From contig NC_052163.1 in assembly GCF_902713615.1 (NCBI RefSeq), positions 48,842,878 to 48,906,877 on the forward strand: a stretch of 64,000 bases of DNA, in the 5' to 3' direction. Shown here in pieces: positions 1 through 53,699 of this stretch. A model generated the notes under the pieces. It saw nothing but the letters and a program-made list of their open reading frames with translations. It made no database searches and was not told where the DNA came from. The position numbers were made by a program, and so were the translations under genes. The stretch's first letter is position 1, and every line of letters starts with the position of its first letter. The DNA is from Scyliorhinus canicula (taxonomy: Eukaryota).

Positions 1-1030
1 GCTCCGCTCGCCGGAATTCCTCAGTGTAGCAAGAGATCGGGCCACCATTTTAAAATCGTGACCCGATCTCTTGAGCACCTAACATGAACCCGATCCCCCA
101 AGCCCCAACTCACTATGAGGGGGGTCCCTGGGCCCCCCAACACCCGCTCAAGGCACCCTGGCCCGATCGCCAACCTGTGAAAAATGACAGCTTGGCACCC
201 TAGCAGTGTCATTCCGCTACCTTGGCAGTGCCCCTATCAGCAGTGCCACTTGAGCACCCTGGAAGTGCCACCTGAGCACCTTGGCAGTGCCAGGCTGACA
301 CCCAGATGGCACTGCCAGGGTGCTAGGCTGACCAAGTGGCACCAGCAGTGCCAGCATGCCATCCTGCCCAAAGGGCATGCATCTGGGGGCCTCCGATACC
401 CTGGGAGAATCTCACGAGTCCCCGTTTGTGGAGACCAGTACTGAATGTCATTCGTCCAAGGTCTCCAATGTGACCTCCAAGGTGGGCAGCACGGTAGCAC
501 AGTGGTTAGCACAGTTGCTTCACAGCTCCAGGGTCCCAGATTCGATTCCCGGCTTGGATCACTGTCTGTGCGGAATCTGCACGTTCTCCCCGTGTCTGCG
601 TGGGTTTCCTCCGGCTGCTCCGGTTTACTCCCGCAGTCCAAAGATGAGCAGGTTAGGTGGATTGGCTATGCTAAATTGCCCTTAGTGTCCAAAAAGGGGT
701 TAGGTGGTGTCACGGGGATAGGGTGGAGATGTGGAGATAGGGTGGAGGTGTGGCCTTAGGTAGGGTGCTTTTTCCAAAGACAGACTTGATGGGCCAAATG
801 GCCTCCTTCTGCATGTAAATTCAATGATTCTCTGATCCCAGTGCGCCGAAAAACTTTATATGACAGTGAGCCTCGCTGTCTCGCTCTAATATCCAGATTT
901 TCCAAAAAGTGATCCCACCCACAATGAGCAGGATTTACATCGCAACATCTCGCAAGATCGTGTTCGATCTCCCGAGGCATTGCAAGCTGGGTAGATCCCG
1001 GGAGTGGGGTCTCCTGGCTTCTATCGGCCA
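1..1030. mobile_element. Non-autonomous DNA-transposon-like repeat (ggcactgcc/ggcagtgcc micro-repeats) interrupted by a SINE
   Basis: Repeated ggcagtgcc/ggcactgcc motifs. A similar element lies at about 59995-60780. Confidence 0.45.
484..830 (+). mobile_element. HE1/V-SINE-like tRNA-derived SINE (long tail)
   Basis: A box (tagcacagtgg), B box (gttcgattcc-like), conserved core gggtttcctccgg.tgctccggttt, and tail …ccttctgca…tgattc. Confidence 0.9.
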
Positions 1031-1655
1031 TGTTGCACAATGGTGCACTGCTTTTCAGGTGCAATATGGCTGTTCGATTGCACCCATGGTATTTTAAATC
1101 AAAACCTTAAACACAATATTAAAATCTTTAACATCACACCCAAAAATGGCTCACAATTATCCTTTAAACAATACTTCTTAATGCAGTGAATACAATATCC
1201 TTACTTGCTATCGTCATTCGCACTTAAATAACAAGAATATAGATCATCCCAACTCTCAACCCACCTTAAGTACCACTGGTGCAGAAGAATACCTGCTTTC
1301 ATTAGTTATTTTTTGAGAAAGAGATATCTTGAAACTGCATTACAGAACAGATCTGACTCCGGTCTGAACCCCTGCAGAAACTCTGGCCTGATGCCCTCAA
1401 AAGCTGTTTTCAACTGGCTTGTTTCAGCTTCCCCTTGTCCTCGGACAGGTCTGCACTGCTTTAAATATAGTTAATCTCTTTAAACTAACCTACAATGAGA
1501 ACCAACTGCCTTACTTGGTCTTAGCTTCAGCCGTATGAGAACTCAACTGAAAATGCTTTCTCAAAATGCCTTAGCTCCACCCATCAATGACATAATCTCA
1601 CCAACCTGAAAATTAATTAACTCCCCAGAAAATCCCCTGAAACAAAAACAAAATT

Positions 1656-1992
1656 GGGTGGCTAGGTGGCACAGTGGTTAGCATTGCGGCCTCACAGCGC
1701 CAGGAACCCAGTTCAATTCCAGCCTTGAGTGTCTGTGTGGAGTTTGTACATTCTCCACATGTCAGCGTGGGTTTCCTCCTGGTGCTCAGGTTTCCTCCCA
1801 CAGTGCAAAGATGTGTGGGTTAGGTGGATTGGACATTCTAAATTGCCCTTAGTGTGCAAAAGGTTAGGTGGGGTTATTGGGTTATGGGGATAGGGTGGGG
1901 ACGTGGGCTTAAGTAGGGTGCTCTTTCAGAGTGACAGTGCAGACTTGATGGGCTGAAAGGCCTCCTTCTGTACTGTAGTGATTCTATGATTC
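1656..1992 (+). mobile_element. HE1-like SINE (long tail)
   Basis: Same head, core and tail as 484-830. Confidence 0.88.
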
Positions 1993-2544
1993 CAAAATTT
2001 CATTAGCCCAAGCATTTGCAATGGTTAATAGCACCGCAGGCTCTTAAAAGCTTTGTTGTATTTTAAACCATGATTCTTTTAAAACCATGACTGCAGCAGT
2101 CAAACACACTCTAACACAGGCTTTTAAGCTATACTTCACAAAATAATTGTAATACAATGGCTGGATTCACTGATCCTGCGGCTATGTCCGCAGGTTCGGT
2201 CTGGTCTTACGACCAGAAAGTCAGCGCCACCCCCACACCGATCCTCCGTCCGGTGGGAGGCTAGCAGCCGCACAGTGTATAGCCCCTGGCTTTACCTGCG
2301 GATATGGCCAGAGAATGGCTGGCTCCGTAGCCGTGCATGCGCATGGCGGTGCCCTTTCCTGTGGAAGTTTACCAATGCTTTGTGATTGTTTGGGCACCTT
2401 ACATTGTCAAACTACCAGATTATACTTGGGACATCCCTTCACCAAAGAAATGAAGATGGTTGACCAGCCAGGATTTTGTCTTTTTATTGTTTATGCATTC
2501 ATGACTGGACAAATGATCTGCAATTTTGTTTTGATGCTTTCATA

Positions 2545-3025
2545 GGATCTGGGCATCGCTGGCCTGGGCTCCATTTATTGTCCATCCTTAATTGCCCTTG
2601 AGGTGGTGGTGAGCTGCAGTCCGTGTGGTGTAGGTACGCACTGTGCCGTTAGGGACGGTCTTCCACAATTTTGACCCAGCGATAGGAAGGAACTATGATA
2701 TAGCTCCAAGTGAGTATGGTGTGTGACTTGGAGGGGAACTCGTAGGTGATGGCATTTCCATGCATTTGCTACCCTTATTCCTCCAGGAAGTAGGGAATGT
2801 GGGTTTGGAAAGTTCTGTCAAAGAAGCCTTGGTGCATGGCTGCAGTTCATCTTGAAGATGGTGCCCACTACAGCCACTGTGCGCCGGTGGTGGAGGGAAT
2901 GGACATTGAAGGTGGTTGATGGGGTGCTAATCAAGTGGGATACATTGTCCTAAATTCTGTTGAGTTACTTGAGTGTTGTTGGAGCTGAACACATCCACGC
3001 AAGTGGAGAGTTTTACATCACACTC
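2545..3025 (-). mobile_element. CR1/L2-group LINE 3' end
   Basis: Reverse complement ends gggcaattaaggatggacaataaatg…gcgatgccc, the tail also seen at 57840-57900, 51340-51400 and 27880-27920. Confidence 0.6.
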
Positions 3026-3026
3026 C

Positions 3027-3336
3027 TGGCCGCACGGCAGCACAGTGGTTAGCACTGTTGCTTTGCAGCGCCAGGCACCCGGATTCGATTCCCGGCTTGG
3101 GTCACTGTCTGTGTGGAGTCTGCATGTTCTCCTCATGTCTGCGTGCGTTTCCTCTTGGTGCTCTGGTTTCTTCCCACAAGTTCCGAAAGATGTGCTTGTT
3201 AGGTGAATTGGACATTCTGAATTCTCCCTCAGTGTACCCGAACAGGTGCTGGAATGTGGTGACTAGGGGATTTTCACAGTAATTTCGTTGCAGTGTTAAT
3301 GTAAGCCTACTTGTGACACTAATAAACAGTATTATT
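3027..3336 (+). mobile_element. HE1-head SINE with alternative (tta)n-type tail
   Basis: HE1 head followed by …ccgaacagg..ctggaatgtggtgactagg…cacagtaa…gtgacactaataaa..tattatta. Confidence 0.82.
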
Positions 3337-4309
3337 AAAAACGTGCAAATTTTACACCTGATGATCAATTCCATTATTTTAGACTAAATTTGTGACGATA
3401 ATGATGACTCTATTATGACCGGTATCTGAGTAACCAACTTCTTTGATTATGAGCAACATGTTAACCTTTCTCCACTCCACCAATGTCGCTCAGTGTCTAC
3501 TGATCCACTTATAATTATGCTTACTGTTTCACAATCCCCTGTCTCCTTGATCTCTTTCTGTGATAAATACCATCCATTACTGGCAAACCTGAAAATCCAT
3601 ATATTATTGACATAGTGCATGAACATCCTCACCACAAAATGTCCTTCCTGTTATTACAGCTTGTGATCACACTTTTTTGTCATTATATGTTGCAATGAAT
3701 TGCTATGTCAAGATCCTCATTCAATTTTGATGTCACGCCTCATAATGTAGTTGCCGTCTCTGACCACAAGGTGGTTCTCTGGGATAAATCTCTTATTGAA
3801 CTGCATTGGCATGCTGGGTATTTATCAACATTATATTTATCAACTGACCATGCCAACAAAACAGCAAATTAAAAATATATGGAGCTATACAAGTTCATCA
3901 AATGTTTCCACCTGGAGGGATTGTAACCTGGAATGTACCAAAACCCGAAACAGTATTTACACTTTGCTGATTATCTGAAAGATGCATTCGGCATTTCCCC
4001 AGCTCTTTAATGCTGGACCCTATCCAATGATTGTGGAAGGAGTCTTGACCTGAACATAAGTGGAAGATAATGCTTGGGTGGGGTTGGGCAGTCGAGGGGG
4101 GCGTGGGGGTGGGGGGATGGGGTGAAGGTCATCGAGTGGCTGACAGCAGTCCTGAATATTTTTTTTACCAGTCATGTTTCTTCTGACTTAACAGTCAGCC
4201 TAACAGTCTGCAAAACAGCCTTTGTGGCCATTTTCTGAGCCACCTTTGTAGACCCTTTAAGGACTATTGGATGAGCTTCTCAATGCCAAGTGTCAATGGC
4301 TGCACACAT

Positions 4310-5235
4310 TGACAGTGTTAAAGTCCCTGGACTAGAAATTCAGGCTAATCTCTGGGGACATGGGTTCAAATCCCACCATGGCAGCGGGTGGAAATTATAT
4401 TCAATTATTTTTTTCAAAAAGTAATGGTGATCACGAAAATATCATAGAACTGCTAAAGGAGGCCATTCAACCCCTCAAGTTTGCACGACCCTCCGAAAGA
4501 GCACTCTACTTAGGCCCACTCCCCTGCCCCATCTGTTACCCCACCTAACCTCCACACCTTTGGACTGTGGGAGGAAACTGCAGCACGCAGAAGAAACCCA
4601 CGCAAAGACAGGGAGAAAATGCAAGCTCCACGCAGACAGTCACCCAAGGCTGGAATTGAACCTGAGTCCCTGGCGCTGGGAAGCAGCAAAGCTAACCATT
4701 GTGCCACCCAAATCGATTGCCATAAAAACCCGTCTGGTTCACTAATTTCCTTCAGGGAAGGAAATCTACCATCTTTACCTGGCCTGGCCTGGCCTACATG
4801 TGACTCCAGATCCACAGTAAAGTAGTTGCCTCATAAATCCCCTCAAGGCATCAATGCTTCACAGCTCCAGGGTCCCAGGTTCGATTCCCGGCTGGGTCAC
4901 TGTCTGTGTGGAGTCTGCACGTCCTCCCCGTGTGTGCGTGGGTTTCCTCCGGGTGCTCCGGTTTCATCCCACAGTCCAAAGATGTGCGGGTTAGGTGGAT
5001 TGGCCATGCTAAATTGCCCGTAGTGTAAGGTTAATGGGGGGATTGTTGGGTTACGGGTTACGTGGGTTTAAGTAGGGTGATCATTGCTCGGCACAACATC
5101 GAGGGCCGAAGGGCCTGTTCTGTGCTGTACTGTTCTATGTTCTAATAGCCAAGCAAGCCTCTCATTTCAAGAGCAGTTAGGTATGGGCAACAAATGCTGG
5201 CTTTTCCTGTGAAGGCCACGTTTCATGAAATGATT
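4310..5235 (+). mobile_element. Older SINE with CR1/L2-type tail, interrupted by two HE1-like SINEs (4441-4709 minus; 4853-5143 plus)
   Basis: B box gggttcaaatccc at 4362, core ggttcactaat..ccttcagggaaggaaatc, homologous to 57352-57915. Confidence 0.7.
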
Positions 5236-6806
5236 TAAAAAAAACATATTTTAATGAGGCTTCCACCTGTTTTGGACAGGAGTCTTTGTTGTCAATTTTG
5301 TGGCAGTGGAAAATCAAGTCAGATAACTAATGGCTATCTGGCTTTTGGAAAATTGGTTTTCAATTTTCAACTGCTTACCATCTTGACTTTCAGCATTGAC
5401 AGGGTAAGCAGCAATTGAAATTATTCTTGTGGCATGAGACAGTTCATAGGTCAGGGCCATGGAAGTAATTACATTCAGAAGATGGAGGATGGCGCTTAAG
5501 GACCCTTTTCATGATGATGATAAGGATTGTTGTCCTCAATTAGCAATTAAAGCTCTACAATCTCATTTCCATCTTGTCTTCATTTATAACCTGTTTAGTT
5601 TGTGATTTTCACGGTTATGTAAGATTATAATGATAGAATAAGACTGCAGACCTCTTGTCTATGTATCAGAAATGATGGTTCCAGGTGAGAATTCAACCAT
5701 TTACATCCTTATTAATCACAGCATGCTTACGATGACGTATGGCAATGTTCTGCTGTGGAATATCACATGTTTCTGTTGTTGAGTTCACCGTTCTACATAT
5801 CTTCCATATTGTTTTATCTTCTAACTTTATACTACAGTTTAGTCATTTTACATTTTTCTAATTGCATTACTTTGCAATTGATACAGTTTACACCAGTTCT
5901 CATCAGCATTTTATCAAGAATCTCCAAGCCCAGGTTTTCGGCCTGAGCCCTGTGGGCCCAAGGCTAGCAGGCTGGTGTTCGGGATAACAAAACATGAATT
6001 ATGACCACTACAGCTACAGTTTTAGTCACTAAGCCATAAATACATTTGTGAGAAAGTTCAAAGTTGAAAGTAATCAATGTGTTATTGAGAGGAGGCTGCC
6101 TGTTTTATCTGTAAAGACCCCAATGTTCTGTAGGTTTTTAACAAGTGACACTTGGGACTTCTGGTGGAGACTTTTAGGTGGAGGTCGCATGTTGGGTGGC
6201 TCATGTCAGAGTTCTCGTTTTTTGGCCCCTTTCACCCAGTTTTGGGGAGAACCTTTACATGAGCTGTCTTCAATAAAGTCATGGGAATTATATGATGTTG
6301 AAATCCCAACGAAAGAATATGGCACGTAAAGGACCGAGTGCTGGTTCGCTTCTGGCCTGGGTTCGGTGCTGAGTTCTGTGGGAGGAAAGATGACGGGAGC
6401 AAGTTCGCCGGGTGGGGCTGCGCCCATTACAGTGGATATGCTGGCCGAGTTGATGGCAGTGGAGTTTGAGCAGCAGTTTGCCACGCATTTTGAGAGGCAT
6501 GGAAAGGAGATGCTGGGAACGCTCAAACAGCTGATGCGAGATACGCTGGGTCCAATAAAGGTGGCTCTTGGAAAGATGTCGGAGACAGTGCAGGAGCAAG
6601 GAGAGGTGTTGAAGGGGGTGGGGGAGGGGTGGAGGAGGGTGGGGGCAAGGGTGTTGGCCGCATTTATGAAGGAGATGGGGGAGCGGACCTGTGGCGGTTC
6701 TTACATCCAGGGGGCAGGTAGTCTGTTTTTTACAGCTATAAGATGAAGGAGAAGGTATTGAGATGGGCCAATCAGAATTGGGAGGTAAGATAGGAAGGCC
6801 TGCGCT

Positions 6807-7092
6807 TTGCAGAGTGGTGAGTCACTGCAACAATAATTGCGTGAGTTATTTACTTTAACATCGATACTAGTGATAAGGTTAACAAGATCTAACTACAGTA
6901 ACTAGCTTGAATCCACTAACCATCTGAGCTAATCTGATACTCCAGTCCTGATCACAGTCCATCCAAAAGAGAGAGAGATAGACCTGATGTGGTTTCTTTT
7001 ATACCCCTGTTGGTCAGACCCTCTAGTGATCATGTAGTGCTACTGATTACACATTAACCCCTTATGTACATGCACATGCAGAGATCACGACA
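6807..7092 (-). mobile_element. LTR-like insertion inside L1 ORF1
   Basis: AT-richer block interrupting the G-rich L1; ends …gatcacgaca (TG start on minus) and carries tataaaa on minus. No clear TSD. Confidence 0.45.
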
Positions 7093-7496
7093 GTGTGCGG
7101 TTTGGGATGGTTTACCTGGCGATGTTGAGAGATACGTATAACTCCAAGGACCATTTATTTGAGATTGCGGAGGAGGTGGAGGCGTTTGTGAGGGCTGAAC
7201 TACTGGGGCTGAACTGAGTTTGACTTTGATTCCTTCTGTTGTGGTTGGGTGGGAGTGGGTTGAGGCTTTTTTCCCTTTGTTTGGTGTTAACATGTTTGGT
7301 TCTTTAGAAGTATTGAGTGTGGGGGGGATCTCTCTATTAGCTTTTGTGTCTGGTATGTGGGGGGAAGGGGGCTCTGGTGGTGGGCCACCTCGCTAGCAAA
7401 CTTAAGTTTGTGAGTGAGGTGGGGGAGGGGCTGCAGCTGGCTGAGCCTGTGTGGATAGGTTTCAACCGGCCTTGGAGGTGTGAATGGGGCCGGGGT

Positions 7497-7534
<38 letters not shown>

Positions 7535-7581
7535 AGGGGGATAGGGAGCATGCAGAGAGGAGTGGTTTCGAGAAGAAGTGC

Positions 7582-7621
<40 letters not shown>

Positions 7622-8936
7622 CTCTGATTGAGGGAAGGGGTAGTTGGTTGACGGCGACTAGGGGCTTGGTCTCATTCATGGGGCGGTGCCGGGGACCATT
7701 TTGGGCGGATGATGGGCCTGTAAGGTTGGCGAGGGGCACCAGGTCTGTCCTGTGGGGTGGTCATGGTTAATGGGAGGGGGAGTGGGGCAGAGGTGAGAGA
7801 CCCCCAGTCCGAATGGTAACGTGCAGGGATTGGTGGGACTGGTGAAGACGGGCGAGTCTTTTCATAATTCAAGAGCCTGGGAGCCGATGTGGTGCTGCTG
7901 CAGGAGACCCATCTGAGGGTGAAGGACCAGGCTACGCTTCAGAAGGGTTGGGTGAGTCGGGCTTTGGGTGAGTCAGGTGTTGGGTGAGTCAGCTTTGATA
8001 GCAAGGCCCGGGGGTAGCGGTACTAGTGGGGAAGATTAGGTTTCACATCAAGAAGATGGTGGTAGGTCAGGGGGGCAGATACATTATAGTAACAGGCGCC
8101 TTGTGCAGAGGGTTGGGGAGGATCAGACGGGGTCTGCAAAGGGTGGGCAGTTGTCCGTGAATGTGTGGTGCTTGCTAAACATTGTGCTCTCCCCATCAGA
8201 AGGGGGGGGGGGGGGGGGGAGCAGAAGGTGGTGGTGGTGCTGGATGCGGAGAAGGCATTTGGTCAAGTAGAGTGGATTATTTGTTTGCGATGTTGGAAAG
8301 GTTTGGGATTGGGTCTAAGTTTGTGGTGTAAGTCAAATTGTTGCAGAAGGAACTGAAGGCAAGTGTTTGTACGAATGAGGTGAACGCAGGATATTTTGAG
8401 CTATATAGGAGAACGAGACAGGGGTGTCCCATATCCTCCCTCTTATTTGCACTGACGATAGAGCCCTTGGCCATTCCACTGAGATGCTCGGATAAGTGGA
8501 GGGGAATAGTGAGGGGGTGCTGGGGTGGAGCATATGGTGTCCCTGTATGCTTATGACCTGTTGGTCTATATTTCCAACCCGGTTCCCACGGTGGGGATAT
8601 AATGGGGTTGCTGAAGCAAATTGGGTTTCTCGGCGATACAAATTGAATTTGGAGAAGAGCGAGTGCGTTTTGGTCCCTCTGCCAGGGATGGGATCTGGCT
8701 TGGGGGTGGGGGGGTGGGGGGTTGCCATTTTGTGTGGTGACTATTATCTGAGGATGCAGCTGGCTCGAGATTGGCCACAGCTCCATAAATTGAATTTTAC
8801 GAGCCTGGTGGGCAGGGTCAAGGTGGATTTGCTGAGGTGGGACAGCCTCCCCCCAGGTCGGGTAAAAGCTGGAAAGATGAATGTTTTGCTGGGGTTTAGA
8901 TTTTTGATCCAGTGTTTACCGGCCGTCTTGACGAAA

Positions 8937-9268
8937 GGGCAGCACAGTAGCACAAGTGGATAGCACTGTGGCTTCACAGAGTCAGGGTCCCAGGTTCGAT
9001 TCCCCGCTGGGTCACTGTCTGTGCGGAGTCTGCACGTTCTCCCCGTGTCTGCGTGGGGTTCCTACGGGTGCTCCGGTTTCCTCCCACAGTCCAAAGACAT
9101 GAAGGTTAGGTGGTTTGGTCATGAGAAAATTGCTCTTCGTGACCAAAAAGGTGAGGAGGGGTTATTGGGTTACGGGGATAGGGTGGAGTGAGGGCTTAAG
9201 TGAGTCGGTGCAGACTCGATGGGCTGAATGGCCTCCTTCTGCACTGTATGTTCTATGTATTTCTATGA
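8937..9268 (+). mobile_element. HE1-like SINE inserted in L1 ORF2
   Basis: Complete head, core and tail. Confidence 0.9.
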
Positions 9269-16250: not shown

Positions 16251-16621
16251 CTGCCCCATGTGGCCCACCCTGGCCCCATGGCCATTTTGTGTTTCTGGCG
16301 TTGGCCGACAGAAAACCCCATGGTGGTGAAATCTGTTCTCATCAAATGTCTGTCTCCATCTCCACATCATAAAGCTACTTTGAAATGTGCAGTGATGCTT
16401 CAACGCAATCTCACCAAATTCGTTCGAACTGTGGTAACGAGTGGGAAAGGCCGGGTGTTTTCCGAAAGCTGCCTGACAAAACCGTCACTGGTATCTAATG
16501 TTAATTGGCCCACTTAATGTGACCCCTAGGGCTTCACGTCACAAATGACTGTCCAGTGGGCTGATTCGCCAGGATCGTGCCCGGCAACTCCCCACTAATG
16601 AGGGGGAGAAAAACCGAAAAA

Positions 16622-16645
16622 TTAGGGTTAGGGTTAGGGTTAGGG
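16622..16645 (+). repeat. Interstitial telomeric repeat (TTAGGG)4
   Basis: Four perfect TTAGGG units. Confidence 0.9.
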
Positions 16646-17463
16646 GGAGCAAAACCGATTCCGCAGAGCAAACCCCACACAGGGAAATCTGGAGCTCAAA
16701 CCAGCTGCCCCTCCAGTCCAAGGTGACCCCCAGGGCTCCATGGAGCACTGAATGCCAATCTGGAGCCTTCCTACGGGGTGGCGATGGCAACCACCAGCAC
16801 CCCAGAGTCTCCACCCCTGACAACCGTGTGTGTCAGAGTCAGTGTCCAGAACATGGTGGCATCGGCAGATGGGCCTGGGCCCTCCTGTGCCAGCTCCCCC
16901 AGAAGATGCCCGCCAGGGGCATCAAAGGCTATGGGATGCGGTAAGCTGCAGGCTGCCTCCACTGCTGAGGGGGCACTGGGATGAGGGCGGGGCAGATAGG
17001 GGGAAGCGCAATTTGGGGCGAGGGACAGTTGGGGGTCACAAGTGTACAACAATAAAACAGGTTCCACCTGAGACATGTGAAGCCTGTGGCATGTTATTCT
17101 GGAATACGGGCCGGTCTCCAAACCTCTGCCCCAGTCCCCTGGGCATAGTGGTCCTGGATTTAAACACCCCCACCCAAAGCATACCATGTGCAGGTGATGG
17201 GTGTGAGTGCGCACTTAGCAGACAGACAGGAGTCAGACTATGGCAAAGAGTGAGGAGCACCGATGGCGGTCAACTCCCCCCAAGTGAGGCAGTCCCTCCC
17301 AGGGTCTCTTTTCCATGGCCCTGACCCACCCTGGGATCTCATCCCCTGGTGCACTGTGCTAGCAATCCCAGTGTCCCTGGGCTAATTGCCCGGGATCAGT
17401 GATGGCTACTCACCTCCTTGGATTGCCACAGTAGCTGGAGGCCGTCGCCGTGCGCATGCGCGG

Positions 17464-20400
17464 TGATGCACGATCAATTGCACAAAGATGAGAGTTGCAT
17501 ACAACTGAGGCTTTATTACACTAAGATGTGTGGCCTCCTACAGCAGCTGCCAAAATGGCTGCTGTACAGGGAGCACACATATTTATACTCCTCCTACTGG
17601 GCAGAGCCAGCAGGCAGAGACTACCCCCATACCTGTAGTACAGGGCCTTACCATACATACCCTAATATATACAGCAGTGGTTACTACCACATTCACCCCC
17701 TGTTAAAATTGAGTCCGGTGGGGGTGGTGGAGAACTATATACAGCACAAGTTTAATATACAGAGAAAAGAATTTTGAGTCCAGAACCGAATACAGGTTTA
17801 GCCAGTCCGGAGCCTTGATCTGACGTTGGGAGCGGCACAGTGGTGGCGGCGATTCTGGCGTCTGTTGGGTCCTTGGTGACTCCGGGAGCGTGCCGAGATC
17901 CTCTTCATCCTCGGGCGTGGGCAGGGGGAGGACAGATGTCCTCAGGGGTTGCTGCTGGGTGCGCCGGGGAGGGGAGGGTGGCGCCGGGCTGGGGGTGTGT
18001 GTGTGTGTGTGTGGAGCCTGCTGGCGCCACGTCCCTGAGAGACAGTATCTTGGTGGCCGTCGTAGGCATACTGGGGGTTGGTGTGGAGTAACTGCACCCT
18101 TTCCTCCAACGGGTCCGCCTTGTGGAGTTGTACGTTCTTACGGAGGAGTAAGTTCCTGGAGCTGCGAGCCAAGTCGGGAGCGACACCCCGGAGGTGGACT
18201 TCCTGGGGAAGGCAAAGAGACGTTCATGGGATGTGTCGTTAGTCGCAGTGCATAGGAGCGACCGAATGGAGTGCAGTGCACCGGGAGGACCTCCTGCCAG
18301 TGGGAGGCCGGGAGATTTCTGGACCGGAGGGCCAGCTGAATGGCCCTCCAGACTGTCCCGTTCTCCCTCTTCACCTGTCCGTTACCCCGGGGGTTATAAC
18401 TGGTTGTCCTGCTCGAGGCGATACCCTTGTGGAGCAGGAACTGACGCAGCTCATCGCTCATGAATGAGGATCCCCTGTCACTGTGGATGTAGACGGGGAA
18501 GCCGAACAGAGTGAAGATGGTGTTAAGGGCTTTGATGATGGTGGCAGACGTCATGTCGAGGCATGGGATGGCGAAGGGGAATCTGGAGTACTCATCGTCC
18601 ACACTGAGGAAATACGTGTTCCGGTCGGTGGAGGGAAGGGGCCCTTTGAAATCCACGCTGAGGCATTCAAAGGGGTGGGAGGCCTTCACCAGGCGCGCAT
18701 GGTCCGGCTGGTAGAAGTGTGGTTTGCACTCCGCACAGACCTGGCAGTCTCTGGTGATGGCCCTGACTTCCTCGACGGAGTAGGGCAGATTGCGGGCCTT
18801 AATGAAGTGGTACAACCGTGTGACTCCCGGGTGACAAAGGTGCAGAGTCCAGAGTTGGTCCACCTGTGCGCTGGCACATGTACCTTGGGATAGGGCATCG
18901 GAGGGCTCGTTGAGATTACCGGGGCGATACAAAATCTCGTAGTTGTAGGTGGAGAGTTTGATCCTCCACCTCAAGGTTTTATCATTTTTGATCTTGAACC
19001 GCTGTGTGTTGTTAAACATGAAACCTATCGACTGTTGGCCAGTGAGGAGAGCGAATCTCCTGCCAGCCAGGTAATGCCTCCAATGCCGCACAGCTTCAAC
19101 GATGGCCTGGGCTTCTTTTTCGAAGGAGGAGTGCTGAATTTCAGAGGTATGAAGGTTCCATGTAAAGAATCCCATGGGCTTGCCTGCCTGGTTGAGAGTG
19201 GCAGCTAGAGCGACGTCTGATGCGTCGCTCTCCACTTGAAAGGGTAACGTCTCGTCGACTGCGTGCATCGCGGCCTTGGCAATGTCGGCCCTAATACGGT
19301 TGAAGGCCTGTTGAGCCTCAACTGTCAGGGGGAAAAGGGTGGACTGGATGAGTGGGCGGGCCTTATCTGCATAATTTGGAACCTACTGGGCGTCGTAAGA
19401 AAAGAACCCCAGGCAGCGTTTGAGGGCCTTGGGGCAGTGGGGAAGGGGGAGTTCCATGAGGGGGAGAATGGGGTCGGGGTCGGGCCCCAGAACTCGGTTC
19501 TGGACCACATAGCCGAGGGTGGCTAAGCGGTTCGTGCTGAATACGGACTTCTCCTTGTTATAAGTGAGGTTTAGGAGAGTGGCGCTGCGGAGAAATTTGG
19601 CAAGGTCGGCGTCGTGGTCCTGCTGGTCGTGGCCACAGATGGTGACATTATTTAGGTATGGGAAAATGGCCCGCAGCCCGTACCGGTCGACCATTCAGTC
19701 CATCTCCCTTTGGAAGACCCAGACCCCGTTGGTGACGCCAAAGGGAACCGTAAGAAAATGGTAGAGGCGGCCGTCTGCCTTGAAGGCAGTGTATAGGCGG
19801 TCCGCCTTACGGATGGGGAGCTGGTGGTAGGCAGATTTTAGGTCTACAGTTGAGAAGACCCGGTACTGTGCAGTCTGATTGACCATATCAGATATGCATG
19901 GGAGGGGGTACGCATCGAGCTGCGTGTACCGATTGATGGTCTGGCTGTAGTCCACGACCATTCCGTGTTTCTCCCCCATTTTCACCACTACCACTTGGGC
20001 TCTCCAGGGGCTGTTACTGGCCTCGATGGTGCCTTCCCGAAGCAGCCGCTGGACTTCGGACCTGATGAAGGTCCTGTCCTGAGCACTGTACCATCTGCTC
20101 CTTGTGGCGACGGGTTTGCAATTCGGGGTTAGGTTTGCGAATAGGGAAGGTGGGTCGACCTTTAGGGTCGTGAGACCGCACACAGTGAGGGGTGGTAGGG
20201 GCCCACCGAATTTCAATGTTAGGCCCTGGAGTAACAGGCCGAGTAGCAGGGCAGCGCAGGGGTTGGGGAGGACGTGGAGGTGGAAGCTCTTGAAAACTCT
20301 ATGCCCTGGATAGTGAGCATGGCTATGCAGTACCCCCGGATCGCCATGGAGTGAGACCCGGAGGCCAGGGAGATTCTCTGATTGGCGGGGTGTACCGCGA

Positions 20401-21752
20401 GGGAGCAGCGCCTTACCGTATCGGGATTTATGAAGCTCTCGCTGTTCCCGGAGTCCAGCAGACAGGAGATCTCGTGCCCACCGATCTTCACGCTTGTGGA
20501 GGCGGTTGCTAGATTGTGCGGGCGAGACTGGTTGATCGTGACTGAGGCGAGCCGCGGCTGGTTATCGCTGGTGTCAGGCAATGGGGTGCCCGGGGGGGCA
20601 TGGGTCCTGGAACGATGGTGGCGCCCACGTGCTGTGGGGGAGACAAGATGGCGGCGCCTGCCAATCCTGAAGAGGACCAGATGGCGGCGCCCACGGGCTG
20701 CATTTGGCGGGGGTTGAACAAGATGGCGGTCGGGGTCGGAGCGATAGCAGCGACTGAGCGAGCCTGGCACACCACAGCGAAGTGCCCCTTTTTGCTGCAG
20801 GCCTTGCAAAGGGCGCTCCGGGCCGGGCAGCGTTGGCGGGGGGTGTTTTGGCTGCCCACAGAAGTAACATCTGGGGCCCCCGGGGTTGGCTGGTTGGTGC
20901 GTGGCACAGGTGTAGGGTTGGTTGAGTAGAGTCCCGGATGGGGCGGCTGTCTGCGGGGTCCACGATACGTAGGAGGGGTGGGCCGCGCGGACGGGGATGT
21001 AGGCCTGGATATTGCGCGAGGCGACCATCATCGATAGCGCCAGCGTTTTGGTTGTCGCGAGGTCGAGCGTGTCTCCCTCTAAAAGTCGCTGGCGGATGTA
21101 ATCTGACGCAATCCCCGTAACGAAAGCGTCCCGGCTGAGTACATTCGCGTGTTCCGTGGCCGTGACGGCCTGACAGTCACAGTCTCTGACCAGGGGAGTT
21201 AGGGCACGCCAGAAATCTTCTCTTGACTCACCAGGGAGTTGACGACGAGTTGAGAGGACATGCCTGTCGTAAAGCGTGTTAGTCCGCTGAGCGTAATTCT
21301 CTTTCAGTATCGCCATGGCTTCATCGTAGGTCGGCGCGTCCTGGATAAGCGGAAAAACGCTGGAGCTCAGCCGTGTGTAGAGGATCTGGATCTTCTGAGT
21401 TTCCAGAATTGGGACTGGTGCAGACCTGATGTAAGCTTTTTGGCGTTGCTTGATTCCGGATCGAGCTGCAGGCGATCCGGCTTGTTGCGGAGGTCCATCT
21501 TCTGAAAACTTTAGTGTAATAAATTGATGCACTATCAATTGCACAAAGACGAGAGTTGAATACAACTGAGGCTTTATTACACTAAGATGTGTGACCGCCT
21601 ACAGCAGCTGGCGAAATGGCTGCTGTACAGGGAGCACACATATTTATACTCCGCCTACTGGGTGGAGTCAGCAGGCAGGGACTACCCCCATACCTGTAGT
21701 ACAGAGCCTTACCATACATATCCTAATATATACAGCAGTGGTTACTACCACA
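17464..21752 (-). mobile_element. Full-length compact Ty3/Gypsy LTR retrotransposon (copy G1, 4.3 kb), decayed
   Basis: Two 228-bp LTRs (17464-17691, 21525-21752; TG...CA; about 14 mismatches by hand count). 5-bp TSD cgcgg/tgcgg. PPT agggggtgaa before the 3' LTR. Domain order gag-PR-RT-RH-IN. Confidence 0.96.
17800..21498 (-). pseudogene. Frameshifted gag-pol of G1
   Basis: Gag zinc knuckles CYFCGQPKH..CPARSALCKACSKKGHFAVVC; protease LLDSG; RT (DLKSAYHQ, VPFG, YL(N)N); RNase H (SDAS, EKEAQA, DALS); integrase HHCC and DDE (VDFKGP, HSDRGSSF, GNGQV). Spread over ORFs 20219-21565, 19695-20216, 19383-19694 and 18138-19268. Confidence 0.93.
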
Positions 21753-21942
21753 TGCGGCCTCTGACCCGGAAATACGGGGGCCAGTATCTCTAGCAAAAGC
21801 TGCAAGATTCACTCCGGGTCCCTGCTCGCACCCTGCAGGTCTATGAATTCATCTCACTTTTTTACAGGAATTTCAGGAGTAAACCTCCACCGTTTTGATG
21901 CTGGCGTGGGGACACAGTCTCAATAGTGGAGAATCCAGCCCC
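21753..21942. mobile_element. Harbinger-type terminal segment (the G1 insertion target continues from about 17400)
   Basis: Ends in the TIR-like ggagaatccagccc. G1 sits in …gtgcgcatgcgcgg|…|tgcggcctc. Confidence 0.55.
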
Positions 21943-34917: not shown

Positions 34918-35275
34918 GGGCAGCATGGTACCATTGTGGATAGCACAATTGCTTCATAGCTCCAGGGTCCCAGGTTCGAATCCGGCTTGGGTCACTGTCT
35001 GTGCGGAGTCTGCACATCCTCCCCGGGTGTGCGTGGGTTTCCTCCGGGTGCTCCGGTTTCCTCCCACAGTCCAAAGATGTGCAGGTTAGGTGGATTGGCC
35101 ATGATAAATTTCTCTTGGTGTCCAAATTTGCCCTTAGTGTTGGGTGGGGTTACTGGGTTATGGGGATAGGGTGGAGGTGTTGACCTTGGGTAGGGTGCTC
35201 TTTCCAAGAGCCGGTGCAGATTCGATGGGCCGAATGGCCTCCTTCTGAACTGTAAATTCTATGATAATCTATGAT
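34918..35275 (+). mobile_element. HE1-like SINE (long tail)
   Basis: Complete head, core and tail. Confidence 0.9.
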
Positions 35276-38478: not shown

Positions 38479-39245
38479 GATTCACAGCAGGGGAACTGTT
38501 ATAACCCCATTCGAAACCTGAGCTGAGAAATGTAGGTTATAATCCTACAGCCTTTCCTGCCGGCGGAATCTTCCAGGTTCCGTAAAAGTCGACCCCGCCG
38601 CGGGTTTCCCAATGGCGGCACGGGCGAGGAATGTAATTGCCATCGACTTTACCAGCACCAGGGGATCCCGCTGGCAGCCGATGGTGAGCTGCCTCCGCCG
38701 TGGGTAAGTTCACCGTAGGGAGGTTGGAGAATTCCTCCTGCAGTTTCTAGTAGTTTATATTTGATAACATTTGTTATCGGCAGGAAAGGGTTTAATTTAA
38801 TCAGCACTCGTTTCTCCTCTTACCACTCATTCGTAAACAGAAAGGTGCTTTCATTTGCTTGCCTTTTTAGAAGTGGTGGTGTATTTCCCAATCCTTTGGT
38901 TTTAGTGGAATCCAATTTCTATTAATAATCCCACAGCAATCTTGAGATAGGATGAACTCAAAACTCAGGAGGAGGGTCACAACATTTCCTCTTTTACATC
39001 CATACAGTAAAAGAGAGACAAAGAATGGAAAGATTTACAATGCAGAGACAACAGAGAAAATAAACGTTGGTCAAAATTTTCTGTCCTCGTACATGGCTGG
39101 GATTTTTTTGGTGCTGCTGAGAGTGAATGGAGTTTTGGCTAGAACAACAAATTTTCTGTTCTCGCTCGCAACGGGTCAAGCCATGGGTGAGACCGGAGAA
39201 TCTCGCCCATTGTTTCACATGGGTTCCAGAGCCTAGAATCAACGA

Positions 39246-40772
39246 TGTGGTAGTCACCACTGTTTGCATGATATGCGTATTCAAGGTAATACGGTAAGGC
39301 TCCTGTACTACAGGTACGGGGGTAGATCCCTGCCTTCTGGTTCCACCCAGTAGGCAGAGTATAAATGTGTATGCACACCGAGCTGCTACCATTTCTAGTA
39401 GCAGCTGCAGGAGGCAACACATCTCTGCTTAATAAAGCCTCGATTACTCTCTACTCTCATCTCGTCGTAATTGATAGTGCATCAATTTATTAAGCAGAGA
39501 TATTACAGCGATGGAACTACGCATCAAGCCAGATTGCCTACAGCTGCACCCCCAAGCAGACAATGCTGCGACGGCCTTCGACAACTGGCTAGCTTGCTTC
39601 AAAAGCTACCTCAGATCAGCGACTGAACAGCCCTCAGAAGCACAGAAGCTTCAGATCCTGTACTCATGGGTGAGCTCTGAGATTTTTCCCCTTATCTGGC
39701 ATGCGCCCACTTACCCTGAAGCAATGGAGCTTCTGAAAAGACACTATATCCGGCCAGTCAACAAACTCTATGCCAGGCACCTCCTGTCCACGAGGCAGCA
39801 ACTCTCCGGTGAGTCATTAGATGATTTCTGGCATGCCCTGTACATCCTGGTGAGGAACTGCGATTGTCAGGCAGTTTCGGCCGTGGAACATACAGAACTC
39901 TTAATCAGGGACGCTTTTGTTGCGGGCATACAGTCGGCGTACATCCGCCAGCGCCTATTAGAAGGGGGTACGTGACCAGACACTCGCGAACTCACTAACG
40001 GTAGCCTCCCATAACGTACAGTCGTACGCCCCCGACAGCACAGCACCCTCATGGACATCTTGGGCCCCACCAGCGGCCGCCCCCAGCCAACCCCAAGCCT
40101 CTGCCGTGCAGCAGTCGGCCAACACCGGGGGGCCCAAGTGCTATTTCTGCGGGCAGACAAAACACCCCCGCCAACGCTGCCCGGCGCGTAGTGCAACCTG
40201 CAAGGCCTGCGGAAAGAAGGGACATTTCGCTGCTGTGTGTCAGGCCTGGTCGATCGCTGCTGCACATAGGCCCAGTGTTCCTGCACCCCCCACGTGCGAC
40301 CCGTGGCTGCCACCATTTTTGTCCCCGCATACCACGTGCGGCCCGTGGGTGCTGCCATCTTTAACGCGTCCGCCATATGCACCCCGTGGGCGCCACCATC
40401 TTCGGCGCCATTTTGGACGGTGCCTCAGGACCCCTGTTTGTCGGGGACTTCATCAGGCCGTTCATCGCCTGCCACCGCCGCCGACCAGCCTGGGGCCTAC
40501 CAACACCATCCGCAACTCGCCTCCATCACGCTCAACCAGTCCCGGACGCACAACCTCGCAACCGCAATGACGACGGTGAAAGTCGATGGGCACATGACAT
40601 CCTGCCTTCTTGACTCCGGGAGCACGGAAAGCTTCATCCACCCCTCCATGGTAAGGCACTGCTCCCTCGCAGTACACCCCGTTACCCAGAGAATCTCCCT
40701 GGCCTCCGGATCCCATTCTGTGGAAATCCGGGGGTACTGCATCGTCACCCACACCATCCACGGCGTCGACTT
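39246..40772 (+). mobile_element. 5' half of a Gypsy element (copy G2: 5' LTR, gag, protease), truncated at a fusion junction
   Basis: LTR 39246-39484 (tgtggtag...gtgcatca) with TATA at 39360 and AATAAA at 39431. Gag ATG at 39511 (MELRIKPDCLQLHP). Zinc knuckles near 40140-40240 and protease LLDSGS near 40605. Confidence 0.93.
39360..39436 (+). promoter_or_regulatory. LTR core promoter and poly(A) signal of G2
   Basis: TATAAAT at 39360, Inr-like ccAtttc with the A at 39391 (31 nt after the TATA start), AATAAA at 39431-39436. The same layout is present in the G1, G3 and G4 LTRs. Confidence 0.7.
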
Positions 40773-43700: not shown

Positions 43701-46700
43701 TCTCCCGGAGTCAAGTAGGCAGGAGGTCGCGTGGCCGTTGATGAGCACCGTCGTTGAAGCGGTGGCCAGGTTGCGAGGACGGGGTTGATCGAGTGTCATG
43801 GAGGCGAGTAGCGGGCGATCGTCCGAAGAGTCCGATGAGTAGCGGCAGCGACCCGGGTCCTGTGGTCCAGTCCCGAGGGGAGGACAAAATGGCGGCGTCC
43901 GAAGTACCTGCGGGGAAGAAGATGGCGGCGCCCATGGAGCGCATATTGCAGGGGCGGGGCAAGATGGCGGAGCCCACTGATCGCACATGGAGTCGGGGGA
44001 GGAAGATGGCGGCGCCCATTGGTCGCATGTGGCCCCGGGAGCAGCAGATGGCGGGGCCCATTGCGCGATCGGCTGGTGAGAGGGGGAGAGGTCGGGCGCG
44101 ATAGCGGCAACTGCGCGGGCCTGACACACCGCTGCAAAGTGGCCTTTCATGCCAAAGGATTTACAGGTCACGGTGCGGGCCGGGCAGCGCTGGCGGGGGT
44201 GCTTCTGCAGAAGTAGCAGCGGGGACCCCCAGGGTGCGCGGTGTGGCGAGCAGCGCAGGCATACTGCGCGGGAGCGGCCCCAGTAGGGGGGGTCGGTTGC
44301 GGGGTCCACGAGGGGTAGGATGGGTGGGCCATGCGGTGGGCGGGGTAGGATTGCAGGTTACATGAAGCGACCGTCATAGAGAGCGCTAAAGTCTTTGTCG
44401 CCGCTAGATCGAGTGCGGCCCCTTCCAGCAGTCTTTGCCGGATGGGGTCCGATGCAATACCCGTCACAAAAGCGTCTCGCATGAGGAGGTTGGAATGTTC
44501 TGTTGCCGAGACGCCTGGCACTCGCAGTCCCGTACTAGAGGGATAAGGGCCCGCCAGAAGTCCTCAATCGACTCACCCGGTTGCTGGACGCGAGTGACGA
44601 GTACATGCCTCGCAAACAGAGTGTTCGTCGACTGGACGTAATTTTCTTTGAGAAGTTCCATAGCACGGGCGTAGGTCGGTGCGTCCTGTATCAGCGGGAA
44701 CACGCTGGAGTTCTACCTTGAGTAGAGTAGTTGAATTTTCTGAGCTTCCGATGGTGTAGGGTCCGCTGAGGTGATGTAGGCCTCGAAGACAGCCAGCCAG
44801 TGGTTAAAGTCTTTTCTGGCGTTTGGCGATTACGGATCCAGCTGCAAGCGGTCGGGTTTAATTCTGATGTCCATGATGCGGAAAATCTCACGGTAATAAA
44901 TTGATGCGCTAACAATTGCACACAAAGACTCAAATCGGTACAAGAGAGGCTTTATTACCGTGAGATGTTATTCCTTCGACCGCAGCTGTAGAATGGCAGC
45001 TCAGGAGAACTCATGAATATTTATACTGCTCCCTGTGGGCGGAGCTAGCCGGCAAACCTGTAATACAGGTACTGCTGTACATCCCCTAATACAGGCACAC
45101 ACACATATATATACAGTGGTGGATCAGCACAAGCTGGTCGTCCTGCTCGAGGCAATGCCCCTGTTGAGCAGGTACTGACGCAGCTTATAGCTCATAAATG
45201 AGGATTCCCGGTCGCTGTGGACGTAGGTGAGGAAACAGAACAGAGCGAAGGTGGTGTTGAGGGCTTTGATGACGGGGGCAGACATCATATTGGGGCATGG
45301 GATGGTGAAGGGGAATCTTGAACATTCGTCGTCCACGTTGAGAAATTACGTGTTGCGGTCGGTGGAGGGGAGGGGACCTTTGAAGTCCACGCTGAGGCAT
45401 TCAAAGGGGCGGGAGGCCTTCACCAGGTGTGCACGGTCTGGCCGGTAGAAGGGCGGTTTACACTCAGCGCAGACCTGACAGTCTCTGGTGATAGCCCTGA
45501 CTTCCTCGATGGAGTAGGGCAGATTGCGGGCCTTTTTGAAGTGATAAAAGCGGGTGACCCCTGGGTGACAGAGATCGTCGTGCAGGGTGCGGAGTCGGTC
45601 CACTTGTGCGCTGGCACATGAACCTCGGGACAGGGCATTGGGGGGCTCGTTGAGCTTACCGGGGCGATACAAAATCTCATAATTGTAGGTGGAGAGCTCG
45701 ATCCTCCACCTCAAGATTTTATCATTTTTGATTTTACCCCGCTGTGTGTTGTTAAACCTGAAGGCAACCGACCATTGGTCAATGAGGAGAGTGAATCTCC
45801 TGCCGGCGAAGTAATGCCTCCAATGCAGCACAGCTTCAACAATAGCTTGGGCCTCCTTTTCAACAGAGGAATGCCGAATTTCGGAGGCATGGAGGGTGCG
45901 GGAAAAGAATGCCATGGGCCTGCCTGCCTGGTTGAGGGTGGCGGCCAGAGCGACTTCTGATGCATCGCTCTCCACTTGGAAGGGGAGCGTCTCATCGACC
46001 GCGTGCATCGCAGCCTTGGCGATGTCGGCCTTGATATGGTTGAAGGCCTGGTGAGCCTCGGCCGTCAGGGGAAAAACTGTGGAGTGAATGCGTGGACGGG
46101 CCTTGCCCGCATAGTTTGGGACCCACTGAGCGTAGTACGAGAAGAATCCCATGCATCGTTCGAGGGCCTTGGAGCAGTGGGGGAGGGGGAGTTCCATGAG
46201 GGGGCGCAAGCGATCGGGGCCAGGCCCTGGAACTCCATTCCGAACCACATAGCCGAGGATGGCTAATCGGTTCGTGATGAACACACACTTCTCCTTGTTG
46301 TAGGTTAGGTTGAGAGGTTTGGCGGCGTGGAGAAATTTGGAAAGGTTAGCATCGTGGTCCTGCTGGTCGTGGCCACGTGATATTATCCAGGTACGGGAAA
46401 GTGGCCCGCAGTCCGTACTGATCAACCATTCAGTCCACCTCCCGTTGGAAGACCGAGACCCCGTTAGTAATGCCGAAGGGAACCCTGAGGAAGTGCTAAA
46501 GGGGGCCGTCCGCTTCAAACGCGGTGTACGGCTGGTCCGCCTTGCGAATGGGGAGCTGATGGTAGGCAGATTTCAGGTCCACTGTCGAGAAGATCCGGTG
46601 CTGTGCAATCTGATTGACCATATCAGATATGCGTGGGAGGGGGTACGCGTCGAGCTGCGTGTACCGATTGATGGTCTGATTGTAGTCAACAACCATCTGT

Positions 46701-48490
46701 TTTTCTCCCCAGTTTTCACCATGACAACTTGGGCTCTCCAGGGGCTGTTGTTGGCCTCAATAATACGTTCCCGCAGCAGCCGCTGGACCTCAGACCTGAT
46801 GAAGGTCGAGTCCTGGGCACTGTACCGTCTGCTCCTGGTGGCGACGGGTTTGCAATCCGGGGTTAGGTTTGCAAATAGGGAAGGTGGGTCGACCTTAAGG
46901 GTCACGAGGCCGCACACAGTAAGGGGTGGTAGGGGTCTGCCAAATTTCAGGGTTAGGCTCTGGAGGTTGCACTGGAAGTCCAGGCCAAGTAGCAAGGGAG
47001 CACAGGGGTTGGGGAGGAAGTAGAGCTGGAAGACGCTGAACTCTACGCCCTGGATGGTGAGGGTGGCGGTGCAGTACCCCTGGATCGCCACGGATTGGGA
47101 GCCGGAGGCCAGGGAGCTTCTCTGGTTGATGGGTTGGACCGTGAGGGAGCAGCGCCTTATCGTATTGGGATGGATGAAGCTCTCAGTACTCCCGGAGTCT
47201 AGAAGGCAGGATATCTTGTGCCCGTCGACCGTCACTGTCGTTCGACGCGGTCGCGAGGTTGTGTGGTCGGGATTGGTCGATCGTGATGGAGGCCAGAAAT
47301 GGCTGGTCGGCGGTGGTTGCAGGCGATGAGCGGCCCGATGAGGTGCCCGACGAGCAGAGGTCCTGAGGCAGGGGAGATGTGGCGCCCACGGGCCTCATGG
47401 GTTGTGAGGCGAGGAAGATGGCGAGCAAGATGGCGGCGCTCACGGGCTGCACGTGTTGTGAGGGGAGCAAGATGGCGGCGCCCATGGGCCGCACATGGTC
47501 GGAGGCGAGGAAGATGGCGGCGCCCGCGGGTCACACATGGGACGATAGCGGCGACCGAGCGGGCCTGGCACACAGCAGCAAAATGTCCTTTCTTCCTGCA
47601 GGCCTTGCAGAGTGCGCTCCGTGCCGGGCAACGCTATCGGGGGTGTTTTGACTGTTTGCAGAAGTAGGACTTGGGTCTCCCGGGGTAGGTTGGCTGCCGT
47701 GTGGCGCAGGCCTGGGGTTGGCTGGGGGAGATCACTGGTGGGGTCCACGGTGAGGTGTTCGCTGGCGGGGTCCAGGATGCCCAGGAGGGCTGGGCCGTGC
47801 GGTCGGGAGCATATGCCTGTATATTGTGTGAGGCAACTGTGAGCGAGAGCGCTAGTTTCTTGGTCGCCGCGAGGTCAAGGGTAGCCCCTTCTAAGAGGCG
47901 CTGGCGGATGTAGGCCGACCCTATGCCCGTAACGAATGCGTCTCTAATTAGCAGGTCAGAATGATCAGCGGCCGAAACGGCCTGGCAATCGCAGTCTCTC
48001 ACCAGGACGTGCAGGACACGCTAGAAATCTTCCACGGACTCACCGGGGAGTTGATACCGCGTGGAGAGGAGGTGCCTGGCGTAGATTTTGTTGGTCTGCT
48101 GAGCGTAGTTTTCCTTCAGTAGCGCCATGGCCTCAGCAAGCTAGCCAATGTGCGAAGGCCAACTTGGCATTGTCCGCTTGAGGGTGCAGCTGCAGGCGAT
48201 CAGGCTTGATGCAGAGATCCATCGTTTTTAAAATCTCTACGTAATAAATTGATGCACTATCAATTACGACGAGACGGGAGTAGAGTGTAATCGAGGCTTT
48301 ATTACACAGAGATGTGGAGCCTCCCGCAGCTGCTGCTGAAATGGCTGCAGCTCGGAGAGCCCACACATTTATACTCCGCCTACTGGGCGGAGCCAGCAGG
48401 CAGGAATCTACCCCCGTACCTGTAGTACAGGGGCCTTACCGTAATACCCTCGTATGCAGTATACACAATACAACAGTGGTGACTACCACA
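40773..48490 (-). mobile_element. Gypsy element copy G4 (5' LTR 48250-48490, gag-pol), lacking its 3' LTR and interrupted in integrase by copy G3
   Basis: Gag ATG at 48222 (MDLCIKPDRLQLHP); PR, RT, RH and IN in ORFs 46573-47235 and 45346-46518. The integrase sequence breaks at 45132 and resumes at 41392 (…SRTTS|YNPRGNGQVERENG), then ends near 40773. Confidence 0.92.
41393..45131 (-). mobile_element. Nested Gypsy element copy G3 (3.7 kb) with an internal deletion of RNase H and the N-terminal half of integrase
   Basis: LTRs 41393-41636 and 44902-45131. Perfect 5-bp TSD agctg (41388-41392, 45132-45136). Gag ATG at 44874; RT FPYLDNVT. Near 42544 the RT connection (AEAQQAFARIR) is joined directly to the integrase core (FGFPDYIHSDRG). 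Confidence 0.95.
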
Positions 48491-51785: not shown

Positions 51786-52075
51786 GGGTGGCACAGTGAC
51801 ACAGTGGATAGCACTGTTGTCTCACAGTGTCAGGGACATGGGTTCAATTGTGGCCTTGGGTGACTGTCAGTAGGAATTTGCACTTTCGCCCCGTGTCTGC
51901 GTGTGTTTCCTCCGGGTGCTCCGGTTTTGCCTGTTAGTGTCCAAAGATGTGCAGGTTAGGTGGGGGTATGGGGATAGGGTGGGGAAGTGGGCCTCGGTGG
52001 GGGTGCTCTTTCAGAGGGATGGTGCGGACCCGATGGGCTGAATAGCTTCCTTCTGCACTGTAGGGATTCTATGGA
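51786..52075 (+). mobile_element. HE1-like SINE
   Basis: Head, core and tail with small deletions. Confidence 0.85.
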
Positions 52076-52172
52076 TAACCGGATATATTTTGAAATTAAA
52101 GAATCCGCAAACCTATTTTCTGAGAAGCATCAAAATGAAAGTCTTTACTGCTTTTAACTCCAGTCTTGGCAA

Positions 52173-52770: not shown

Positions 52771-53039
52771 ACAATTAATACAATTCCTCTTACTGGAGCT
52801 GCCAATCAACAAGAACAAAATTCAGCTGGACGTACGGTCAGTCCTGAAGAATCATATCACTATTACCTTCATATTCCCTTCATGATTGAGAAGTGAGAAT
52901 TATCTGATGCTGAATAGACCAATAGTTCTACTTGGCTTCAACAAAATGAAGAGAAATTTGCCCTGGCAATGCACAGAACTGGACAGAATAAAGGGTAATG
53001 AGAAGCTACGAGATTGAAGAGGCCAGAGTTAATTTGTGT

Positions 53040-53423: not shown

Positions 53424-53699
53424 CTTGTACTTTATTTGTCAGCTGTGCTACTGGTAACTTTTTTTACGATAGAACATTTCGCAAGTTCTGACTAGCCCTT
53501 TAGCAACCTAGTGAGATTGATTGTCTTTAGCGAATGCAGTAGTTGAGTTTTCATTCAATTACAAATCGTCGGAATTCTTCAAATCATAATACACAGGATA
53601 ACATAATTAAGTTAAAGAGAAAATGCTGGAAAATCTCAGCAGGTCTGGCAGCATCTGTAGGGAGAGAAAAGAGCTAACGTTTCGAGTTTTATGAAGCTT

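Follow-up and report, generated by a model that had tools for sequence, protein, structure and literature searches.

Element and stem in the window

The window analysed here, a stretch of 64,000 nucleotides of Scyliorhinus canicula DNA, carries on its minus strand a decayed Gypsy LTR retrotransposon of about 4.3-4.4 kb, hereafter G1. The 5' LTR (21525..21752, minus strand, as for all parts of G1) is 228 bp long, starts with TG and ends with CA, and differs from the 3' LTR (17464..17691) at 14 of 228 positions. The gag and protease region (20219..21498) is frameshifted, and its start codon at 21498 is preceded by a leader of just 26 nt. The region for RT, RNase H and integrase (17905..20561) is broken and arranged in the Gypsy order, with no chromodomain match. 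A polypurine tract was identified at 17692..17701, and a 5-bp target duplication at 21753..21757 (left copy) and 17459-17463, with one difference between the two copies. The TG...CA ends of the LTRs, the target duplication, the polypurine tract and the PR-RT-RH-IN order together place the element in Ty3/gypsy, and in the PDB the family profile matched Ty3 Gag-Pol best. The closest named proteins come from Scyliorhinus and rays. Elsewhere in the window, a short telomere-type TTAGGG run is located at 16620-16645, some 800 bp away from the 3' LTR, and many copies of a tRNA-derived SINE, which we take to be of the shark HE1 type, lie within 485-9141, 34918-35267 and 51803-58328.

A 13-bp inverted repeat claimed for G1 in the preliminary description was found to be real. 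Segment 21511-21523 is the exact reverse complement of segment 21573-21585, with a loop of 49 nt between them, and no further Watson-Crick pair is possible at either side. The LTR arm (21573..21585), a candidate self-primer, lies in R of the 5' LTR and ends with the six bases AATAAA (21578-21573). The opposite arm (21511..21523) occupies the primer-binding-site (PBS) position, 1 nt (21524) beyond the 5' LTR end, and contains no TGG. The 3' LTR carries the same arm at 17512-17524 and its flank holds no partner, as had been described. At the LTR end, a short inverted repeat, ATTGAT...ATCAAT (21523-21541, minus strand), is almost invariant between subfamilies and resembles a U5-IR stem.

After folding of 21490-21640 as minus-strand RNA, the stem was present in both the MFE and the centroid structures. 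None of 200 shuffles was equally stable (z = -4.39, a value that includes a second hairpin). When the bases of the 4.4-kb element were shuffled 200 times, two of the resulting sequences contained any inverted repeat of 13 bp with a loop of at most 100 nt. In the 64-kb window such repeats occur at four places, three of which are LTR/PBS junctions of the G1 family. A 14-bp inverted repeat at 61245-61314 is part of a GC-rich repeat that has no relation to this family.

Copies in the window and in the genome

Three further family stems were located in the window: G2 (48233..48313, minus strand) with 16 pairs including two G-U, G3 (39421..39501, plus strand) with 16 perfect pairs, and G4 (44885..44966, minus strand) with 16 perfect pairs, the last two each of a distinct sequence. 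The four copies thus represent four different stem variants, and none of them carries TGG at the PBS. Within 39245-48490, nested or rearranged family members form a cluster that occupies both strands and includes at least three types of stem. The compensatory substitution proposed between G1 and G2 was borne out, as two pairs are altered on both sides (U-A to C-G and A-U to U-A); two further pairs are G-U in G2, resulting from a one-sided change in G2.

Relatives of G1 usually pair over 15-16 nt, and the outer three pairs are lost in G1. Among the 30 best matches to G1, which were chosen by likeness to a query containing both arms and are thus biased toward pairing, all 13 pairs were retained in 17, 12 pairs in 10 and 11 pairs in 3, so that complementarity is kept in other G1-type copies. 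The non-pairing outer triplet of G1 is shared by 24 of these 30. Genome-wide (4.22 Gb), a pattern in which only AATAAA, the LTR end and six facing bases were fixed matched 3,219 + 3,179 = 6,398 junctions, compared with 3 + 6 = 9 for the reversed control. G1 itself is a decayed copy, and its value is that of one data point in a covariation series.

Covariation between the two arms

Covariation was analysed at 90 junctions that were chosen only by AATAAA...CATCAATTTATT. These were taken from 100 matches listed, all within the first 51 Mb of contig C1, after one near neighbour and the last nine had been left out. For the six variable pairs outside the chosen bases (540 pairs in total), 491 were Watson-Crick, 14 were G-U and 35 were mismatched, and the best of 10,000 permutations gave 308 Watson-Crick pairs. 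All six pairs were perfect at 60 of the 90 junctions, in 19 distinct hexamer types. The mean number of pairs was 5.46 of 6 in cis, in contrast to 2.88 in trans, when arms were exchanged between copies; slid controls at the 90 junctions gave 0.4-2.0. Mutual information of the six pairs ranged between 0.63 and 1.16 bits. Since the 90 copies are related, these counts do not represent 90 independent events. A chance origin of the G1 stem was rejected on the basis of the shuffle, permutation and control counts. Over the 90 junctions, a less biased set than the 30 G1 matches, the covariation is strong and includes many subfamilies, in support of the R/PBS stem originally claimed.

In a 58-row alignment, RNAalifold predicted only this helix, and each of the six variable pairs showed changes in both partners. 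The alignment was hand-picked from 56 of the 90 loci and two window copies, many degraded or redundant loci being omitted, so that its figure of 99% paired is inflated. Pairing at the shark junctions extends to about 16 nt and then ends sharply at a conserved base; in some subfamilies both arms are shorter by 1 nt. The arm is followed by GCC at 78 of the 90 junctions. Pairing between the loop and the gag start region is possible and appears, by eye, to covary.

The remaining 30 of the 90 copies are imperfect, and several of them join the arm of one subfamily to the PBS of another. Four loci (L096, L094, L081 and L116) combine an LTR arm and a PBS of different subfamily types and are possible recombinants, from which the point of strand transfer might be mapped. 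At another locus, L072 (G000:C1:27933852-27934512), a pairing of 21 nt leads into LTR-like sequence and not into gag, which suggests a fold-back or a template switch that copied past the arm.

The same data bear on the possibility that the PBS binds a host RNA, such as a tRNA half or another small RNA, and that the match to the LTR is incidental. Priming by half-tRNA does occur in some Ty1/copia lineages, according to the available part of PMC6317226. The shark genome, however, contains 19 perfect variants, each matching its own LTR and not those of others, and no single host RNA can therefore fit all of them; furthermore, no Rfam match was detected at E<=1 within 21300-21800. We regard a host-RNA primer as highly improbable. 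Conventional tRNA priming was rejected because TGG is absent, and the difference in covariation between cis and trans largely refutes the host-RNA reading in general.

Conservation in distant relatives

A search with an alignment of 33 long relatives yielded 80 metagenome loci and 7 loci in GTDB bins; a single-protein search of metagenomes gave no related loci, nor did an alignment search of viral contigs. The loci in bacterial GTDB bins (L201-L207) likely represent host contamination. In 49 loci the match extended to the vicinity of the gag start. Of these, 9 lacked enough upstream DNA and 3 lacked a junction motif, leaving 37 that were scored, each anchored at its junction. These distant relatives form 17 families at 85% RT identity and share 42-65% RT identity with G1.

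A perfect complement of 10-19 nt was observed in 29 of the 37 loci, at an offset of 1 in 28 of these 29, and each was longer than the maximum found in its own 200 shuffles. For the 8 loci below 10 nt, inspection by eye classified 5 as near matches with one change and 3 as probably wrong junctions. TGG at the PBS was found in none of the 37. The arm ends with AATAAA or ATTAAA in 14 of the 17 families and with other A-rich hexamers in the remaining 3, and GCC or ACC is nearly always next. Two loci (L122 and L157) have a separate AATAAA inside the loop. A helix of at least 5 pairs directly after the arm was detected in 7 of 20 relatives, four of the 20 being one family (shuffles: mean 2.1, maximum 6).

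As controls, six other Gypsy loci of the shark genome were examined, three of which have clear LTR ends (28-31% RT-RH identity). In these three elements the leader starts with TGG and the self-complement is 5 nt or less. No Pfam Chromo match (E<=0.01) was obtained in the ORFs of the window or in the 33 long relatives, and a search for chromodomain-bearing comparison elements returned 20 matches. In the RT-RH tree, one distant comparison group with long branches was placed inside the family with low support, and the tree carries no information on placement. The pairing has a fixed place 1 nt after the LTR end, a tRNA-type site is lacking, and the arms covary across subfamilies and distant families. 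The stem is real, and it is a functional feature of a Gypsy lineage that is widespread. Beyond what had been described for G1, the arm is the poly(A) signal, its predicted position is about 30 nt within the transcript, and the lineage is much wider.

Predicted transcription start

The distance between a TATA box and the transcription start follows an established rule. At the shark junctions, 72 loci had both a TATA box and a conserved CCATT, and in 65 of these the CCATT lies 30-32 nt downstream of the TATA box. In G1 the predicted start region is 21617..21648, with the TATA box from 21648 and the initiator-like CCATT (A at 21617) at a spacing of 31 nt. On this prediction, the arm would correspond to +33 to +45 of the RNA. 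Around the predicted start lies an upstream hairpin (21588..21640), identified by folding, which ends where the arm begins; the folding z of its counterpart was below -2 at 56 of the 90 loci. If the predicted start is correct and falls in the loop of this hairpin, the hairpin could form only in the RNA copy of the 3' LTR, just ahead of the poly(A) signal.

Transcription might instead start at or near the arm, at a conserved CATCT, so that the primer would be the capped 5' end as in plain Tf1-type self-priming. The sharp stop of pairing at 15-16 nt, at a conserved base, is in agreement with such a start, and distant relatives mostly have no TATA box in the 110 nt ahead of the arm (found in 1 of 20). 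Alternative start sites are used by Tf2, as stated in the available text of PMC5341516. Against this, the sole TATA box in the shark family is located about 60 nt before the arm, and the conserved CCATT is placed at the usual 30-32 nt. We consider a start at the arm rather unlikely, though not negligibly so; it is a sub-case of self-priming, and takes up somewhat less than a third of the weight given to self-priming as a whole.

No run on record as RNA contains the stretch. Four raw-read RNA runs labelled with the species were aligned to the G1 and G3 junctions, and 656 + 279 reads were aligned, nearly all derived from other copies, with one read at >=99% in each alignment. Neither a pile-up of starts or ends on these junctions nor a poly(A) tail among the loose ends listed was observed. 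Many reads continue beyond the LTR end into unrelated flanks, as expected of read-through copies.

Accessibility of the poly(A) signal

The predicted accessibility of AAUAAA in G1 was 0.011 in the leader, compared with 0.81 at the RNA 3' end, where the copy in the 3' LTR is predicted to be unpaired. For the 90 loci, the predicted medians were 0.013 in the leader and 0.835 for the LTR alone, and at 87 of 90 the leader had the lower value. Masking of the 5' poly(A) signal is thus a likely second effect of the stem.

The stem might do nothing else, protecting the transcript from premature polyadenylation in the 5' LTR while something else serves as primer. In the shark family the arm ends precisely on AATAAA, and 14 of 17 distant families have either AATAAA or ATTAAA at the arm end; the decrease in predicted accessibility from 0.84 to 0.01, seen in nearly all copies, agrees with masking. 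Retroviruses, too, have to silence the 5' signal, and RNA structure serves them in this (PMC3694450, in the part available). Masking alone, however, would leave the element without a primer site, as the 26-nt leader offers no other, and it would not need the fixed 1-nt offset from the LTR end. It also leaves aside the arms of non-canonical sequence in 3 of 17 families and the two loci with AATAAA in the loop (L122 and L157), which indicate that it is the LTR end, and not the signal, to which the pairing is tied. We judge it improbable that masking is the sole role. Priming is ranked as the main role because the offset of the partner is fixed, no other primer site is present and some families pair a non-canonical hexamer.

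Proposed self-priming

In the stem, the PBS is paired with a part of the same element's 5' LTR, and this part terminates in the poly(A) signal. By analogy with known elements it is likely to be a tRNA-independent self-primer for reverse transcription. As in Tf1, the arm would anneal to the PBS within the genomic RNA, and RT/RNase H would cut right after the arm (AAA|GCC in G1). The 3' end of the arm faces the LTR end, so that cleavage behind AAUAAA would leave a primer from which the loop is copied; the new 3' end would then direct synthesis of minus-strand DNA through the 49-nt loop. The minus-strand DNA could jump to the 3' end of the RNA via the short segment that separates AATAAA from the poly(A) site. 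With transcription starting about 30 nt ahead of the arm, the primer would carry a 5' extension and measure about 45 nt in total unless trimmed. It might also be copied into the plus strand.

Such copying may be the reason why the arms are strictly Watson-Crick. For the arm types observed at least twice, 87 of 90 pairs were Watson-Crick, 1 was G-U and 2 were mismatched, whereas predicted helices of the loop contained 120 G-U among 1,107 pairs (about 11%). This scarcity of G-U is compatible with a primer that serves as the template for the PBS.

The primer could also be supplied by the arm copy in the 3' LTR or by a second RNA in the particle. The 3' LTR contains the same arm, predicted to be open at the RNA 3' end, and covariation is blind to which copy pairs. 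The 5' copy, however, is only 49 nt away and is paired in nearly the whole predicted ensemble, and cutting of the 3' copy would presumably remove the stretch required for strand transfer. We give little credence to a primer acting from there.

Taken as a whole, a large animal Gypsy lineage outside the chromoviruses may have evolved self-priming independently, with its own poly(A) signal as primer. One helix would silence the 5' poly(A) site, a cut at AAA|RCC would start reverse transcription from an internal, 5'-extended primer, and the PBS would be re-templated in each cycle. We propose this combined scheme tentatively, as a serious possibility in which we place somewhat less than even confidence.

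Comparison with known systems

Among named clades, Ciona Cigr-1 is a candidate for the lineage; its presumed likeness is in a size of about 4 kb, short LTRs and one ORF. In the accessible text of PMC6238403, Cigr-1 is a recognised small Gypsy clade that is present in molluscs too, and none of the five supplement files of that paper contains a matching peptide. Assignment to the Mag lineage was rejected: Culex Mag elements have a PBS for tRNA-Leu/Ser/Arg (PMC3286476, in the part available), while neither the window copies nor the 37 relatives have the TGG of a tRNA-type PBS.

Elements of the Tf1/sushi group have no tRNA site, and their PBS, directly after the 5' LTR, is complementary to their own R region (PMC10085805, PMC4600332, PMC7175516, in the sections available). 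The shark lineage is the same as Tf1/Tf2 of Schizosaccharomyces pombe, Tj1, Tosmo1-3 and other Tf1/sushi chromoviruses in its Ty3/gypsy domain order, the lack of a tRNA site and the self-complementary PBS. In contrast to that group it has no chromodomain (0 of 33 relatives), and is therefore not filed under Tf1/sushi. As far as the available text on Tf1 describes, the arm also differs in length (13-19 nt versus 11), in ending with a poly(A) signal, and in its predicted location, which is about 30 nt into the transcript and not at the 5' end. A 'pretzel' of three duplexes as in Tf1 is supported only in part: RNAalifold gave the main helix alone in the shark copies and not the full structure, and the adjacent helix in 7 of 20 relatives resembles the neighbouring duplexes described in the accessible part of PMC10085805.

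Self-priming is also predicted for the Tcn1 clade of chromoviruses and for the plant TAR lineage of Ty1/copia (Houba, Osr-1), based on LTR-PBS complementarity of at least 10 nt (PMC6317226); these are other lineages in other hosts, and the part of that paper available mentions no overlap with a poly(A) signal. Tf1/sushi, Tcn1 and plant TAR are the groups for which self-priming was found in the literature, as far as its accessible parts extend. A self-priming animal Gypsy without chromodomain, or a primer formed by a poly(A) signal, was not encountered in the available portions of the literature outside subscription papers, Repbase Reports and GyDB (PMC3601003, PMC5006619, PMC3670739, PMC6934838, PMC11042837). 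The kind of mechanism is thus known, and its occurrence in elements that lack a chromodomain and whose arm lies at the poly(A) signal may be new. Self-priming may have been noted for some Gypsy families in Repbase, so an earlier mention is quite possible.

Self-priming has so far been treated, in the accessible literature, as a mark of the Tf1/sushi chromoviruses and one plant copia lineage. If the proposed reading is true, it is much wider, with thousands of copies in the shark and relatives in many animal-associated assemblies. Such elements would be without the tRNA-matching site that tRNA fragments use for silencing of LTR elements. As a natural source of covariation the shark genome is unusually rich, and the predicted cut site lends itself to a direct test.

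With respect to the poly(A) signal, the closest comparison is to HIV-1, foamy virus and MoMLV, in which the signal is present in both LTRs and is suppressed at the 5' end with involvement of RNA structure (PMC3694450). As described in the part of that paper available, occlusion in retroviruses takes place via U1 snRNP at the splice donor or via structures within R. In the shark lineage, by contrast, the predicted partner of the signal is the PBS, located outside the LTR, so that masking would automatically be specific to the 5' copy. If the proposed reading is true, one helix would solve two problems that every LTR element faces, the priming of reverse transcription and the ignoring of the 5' poly(A) signal.
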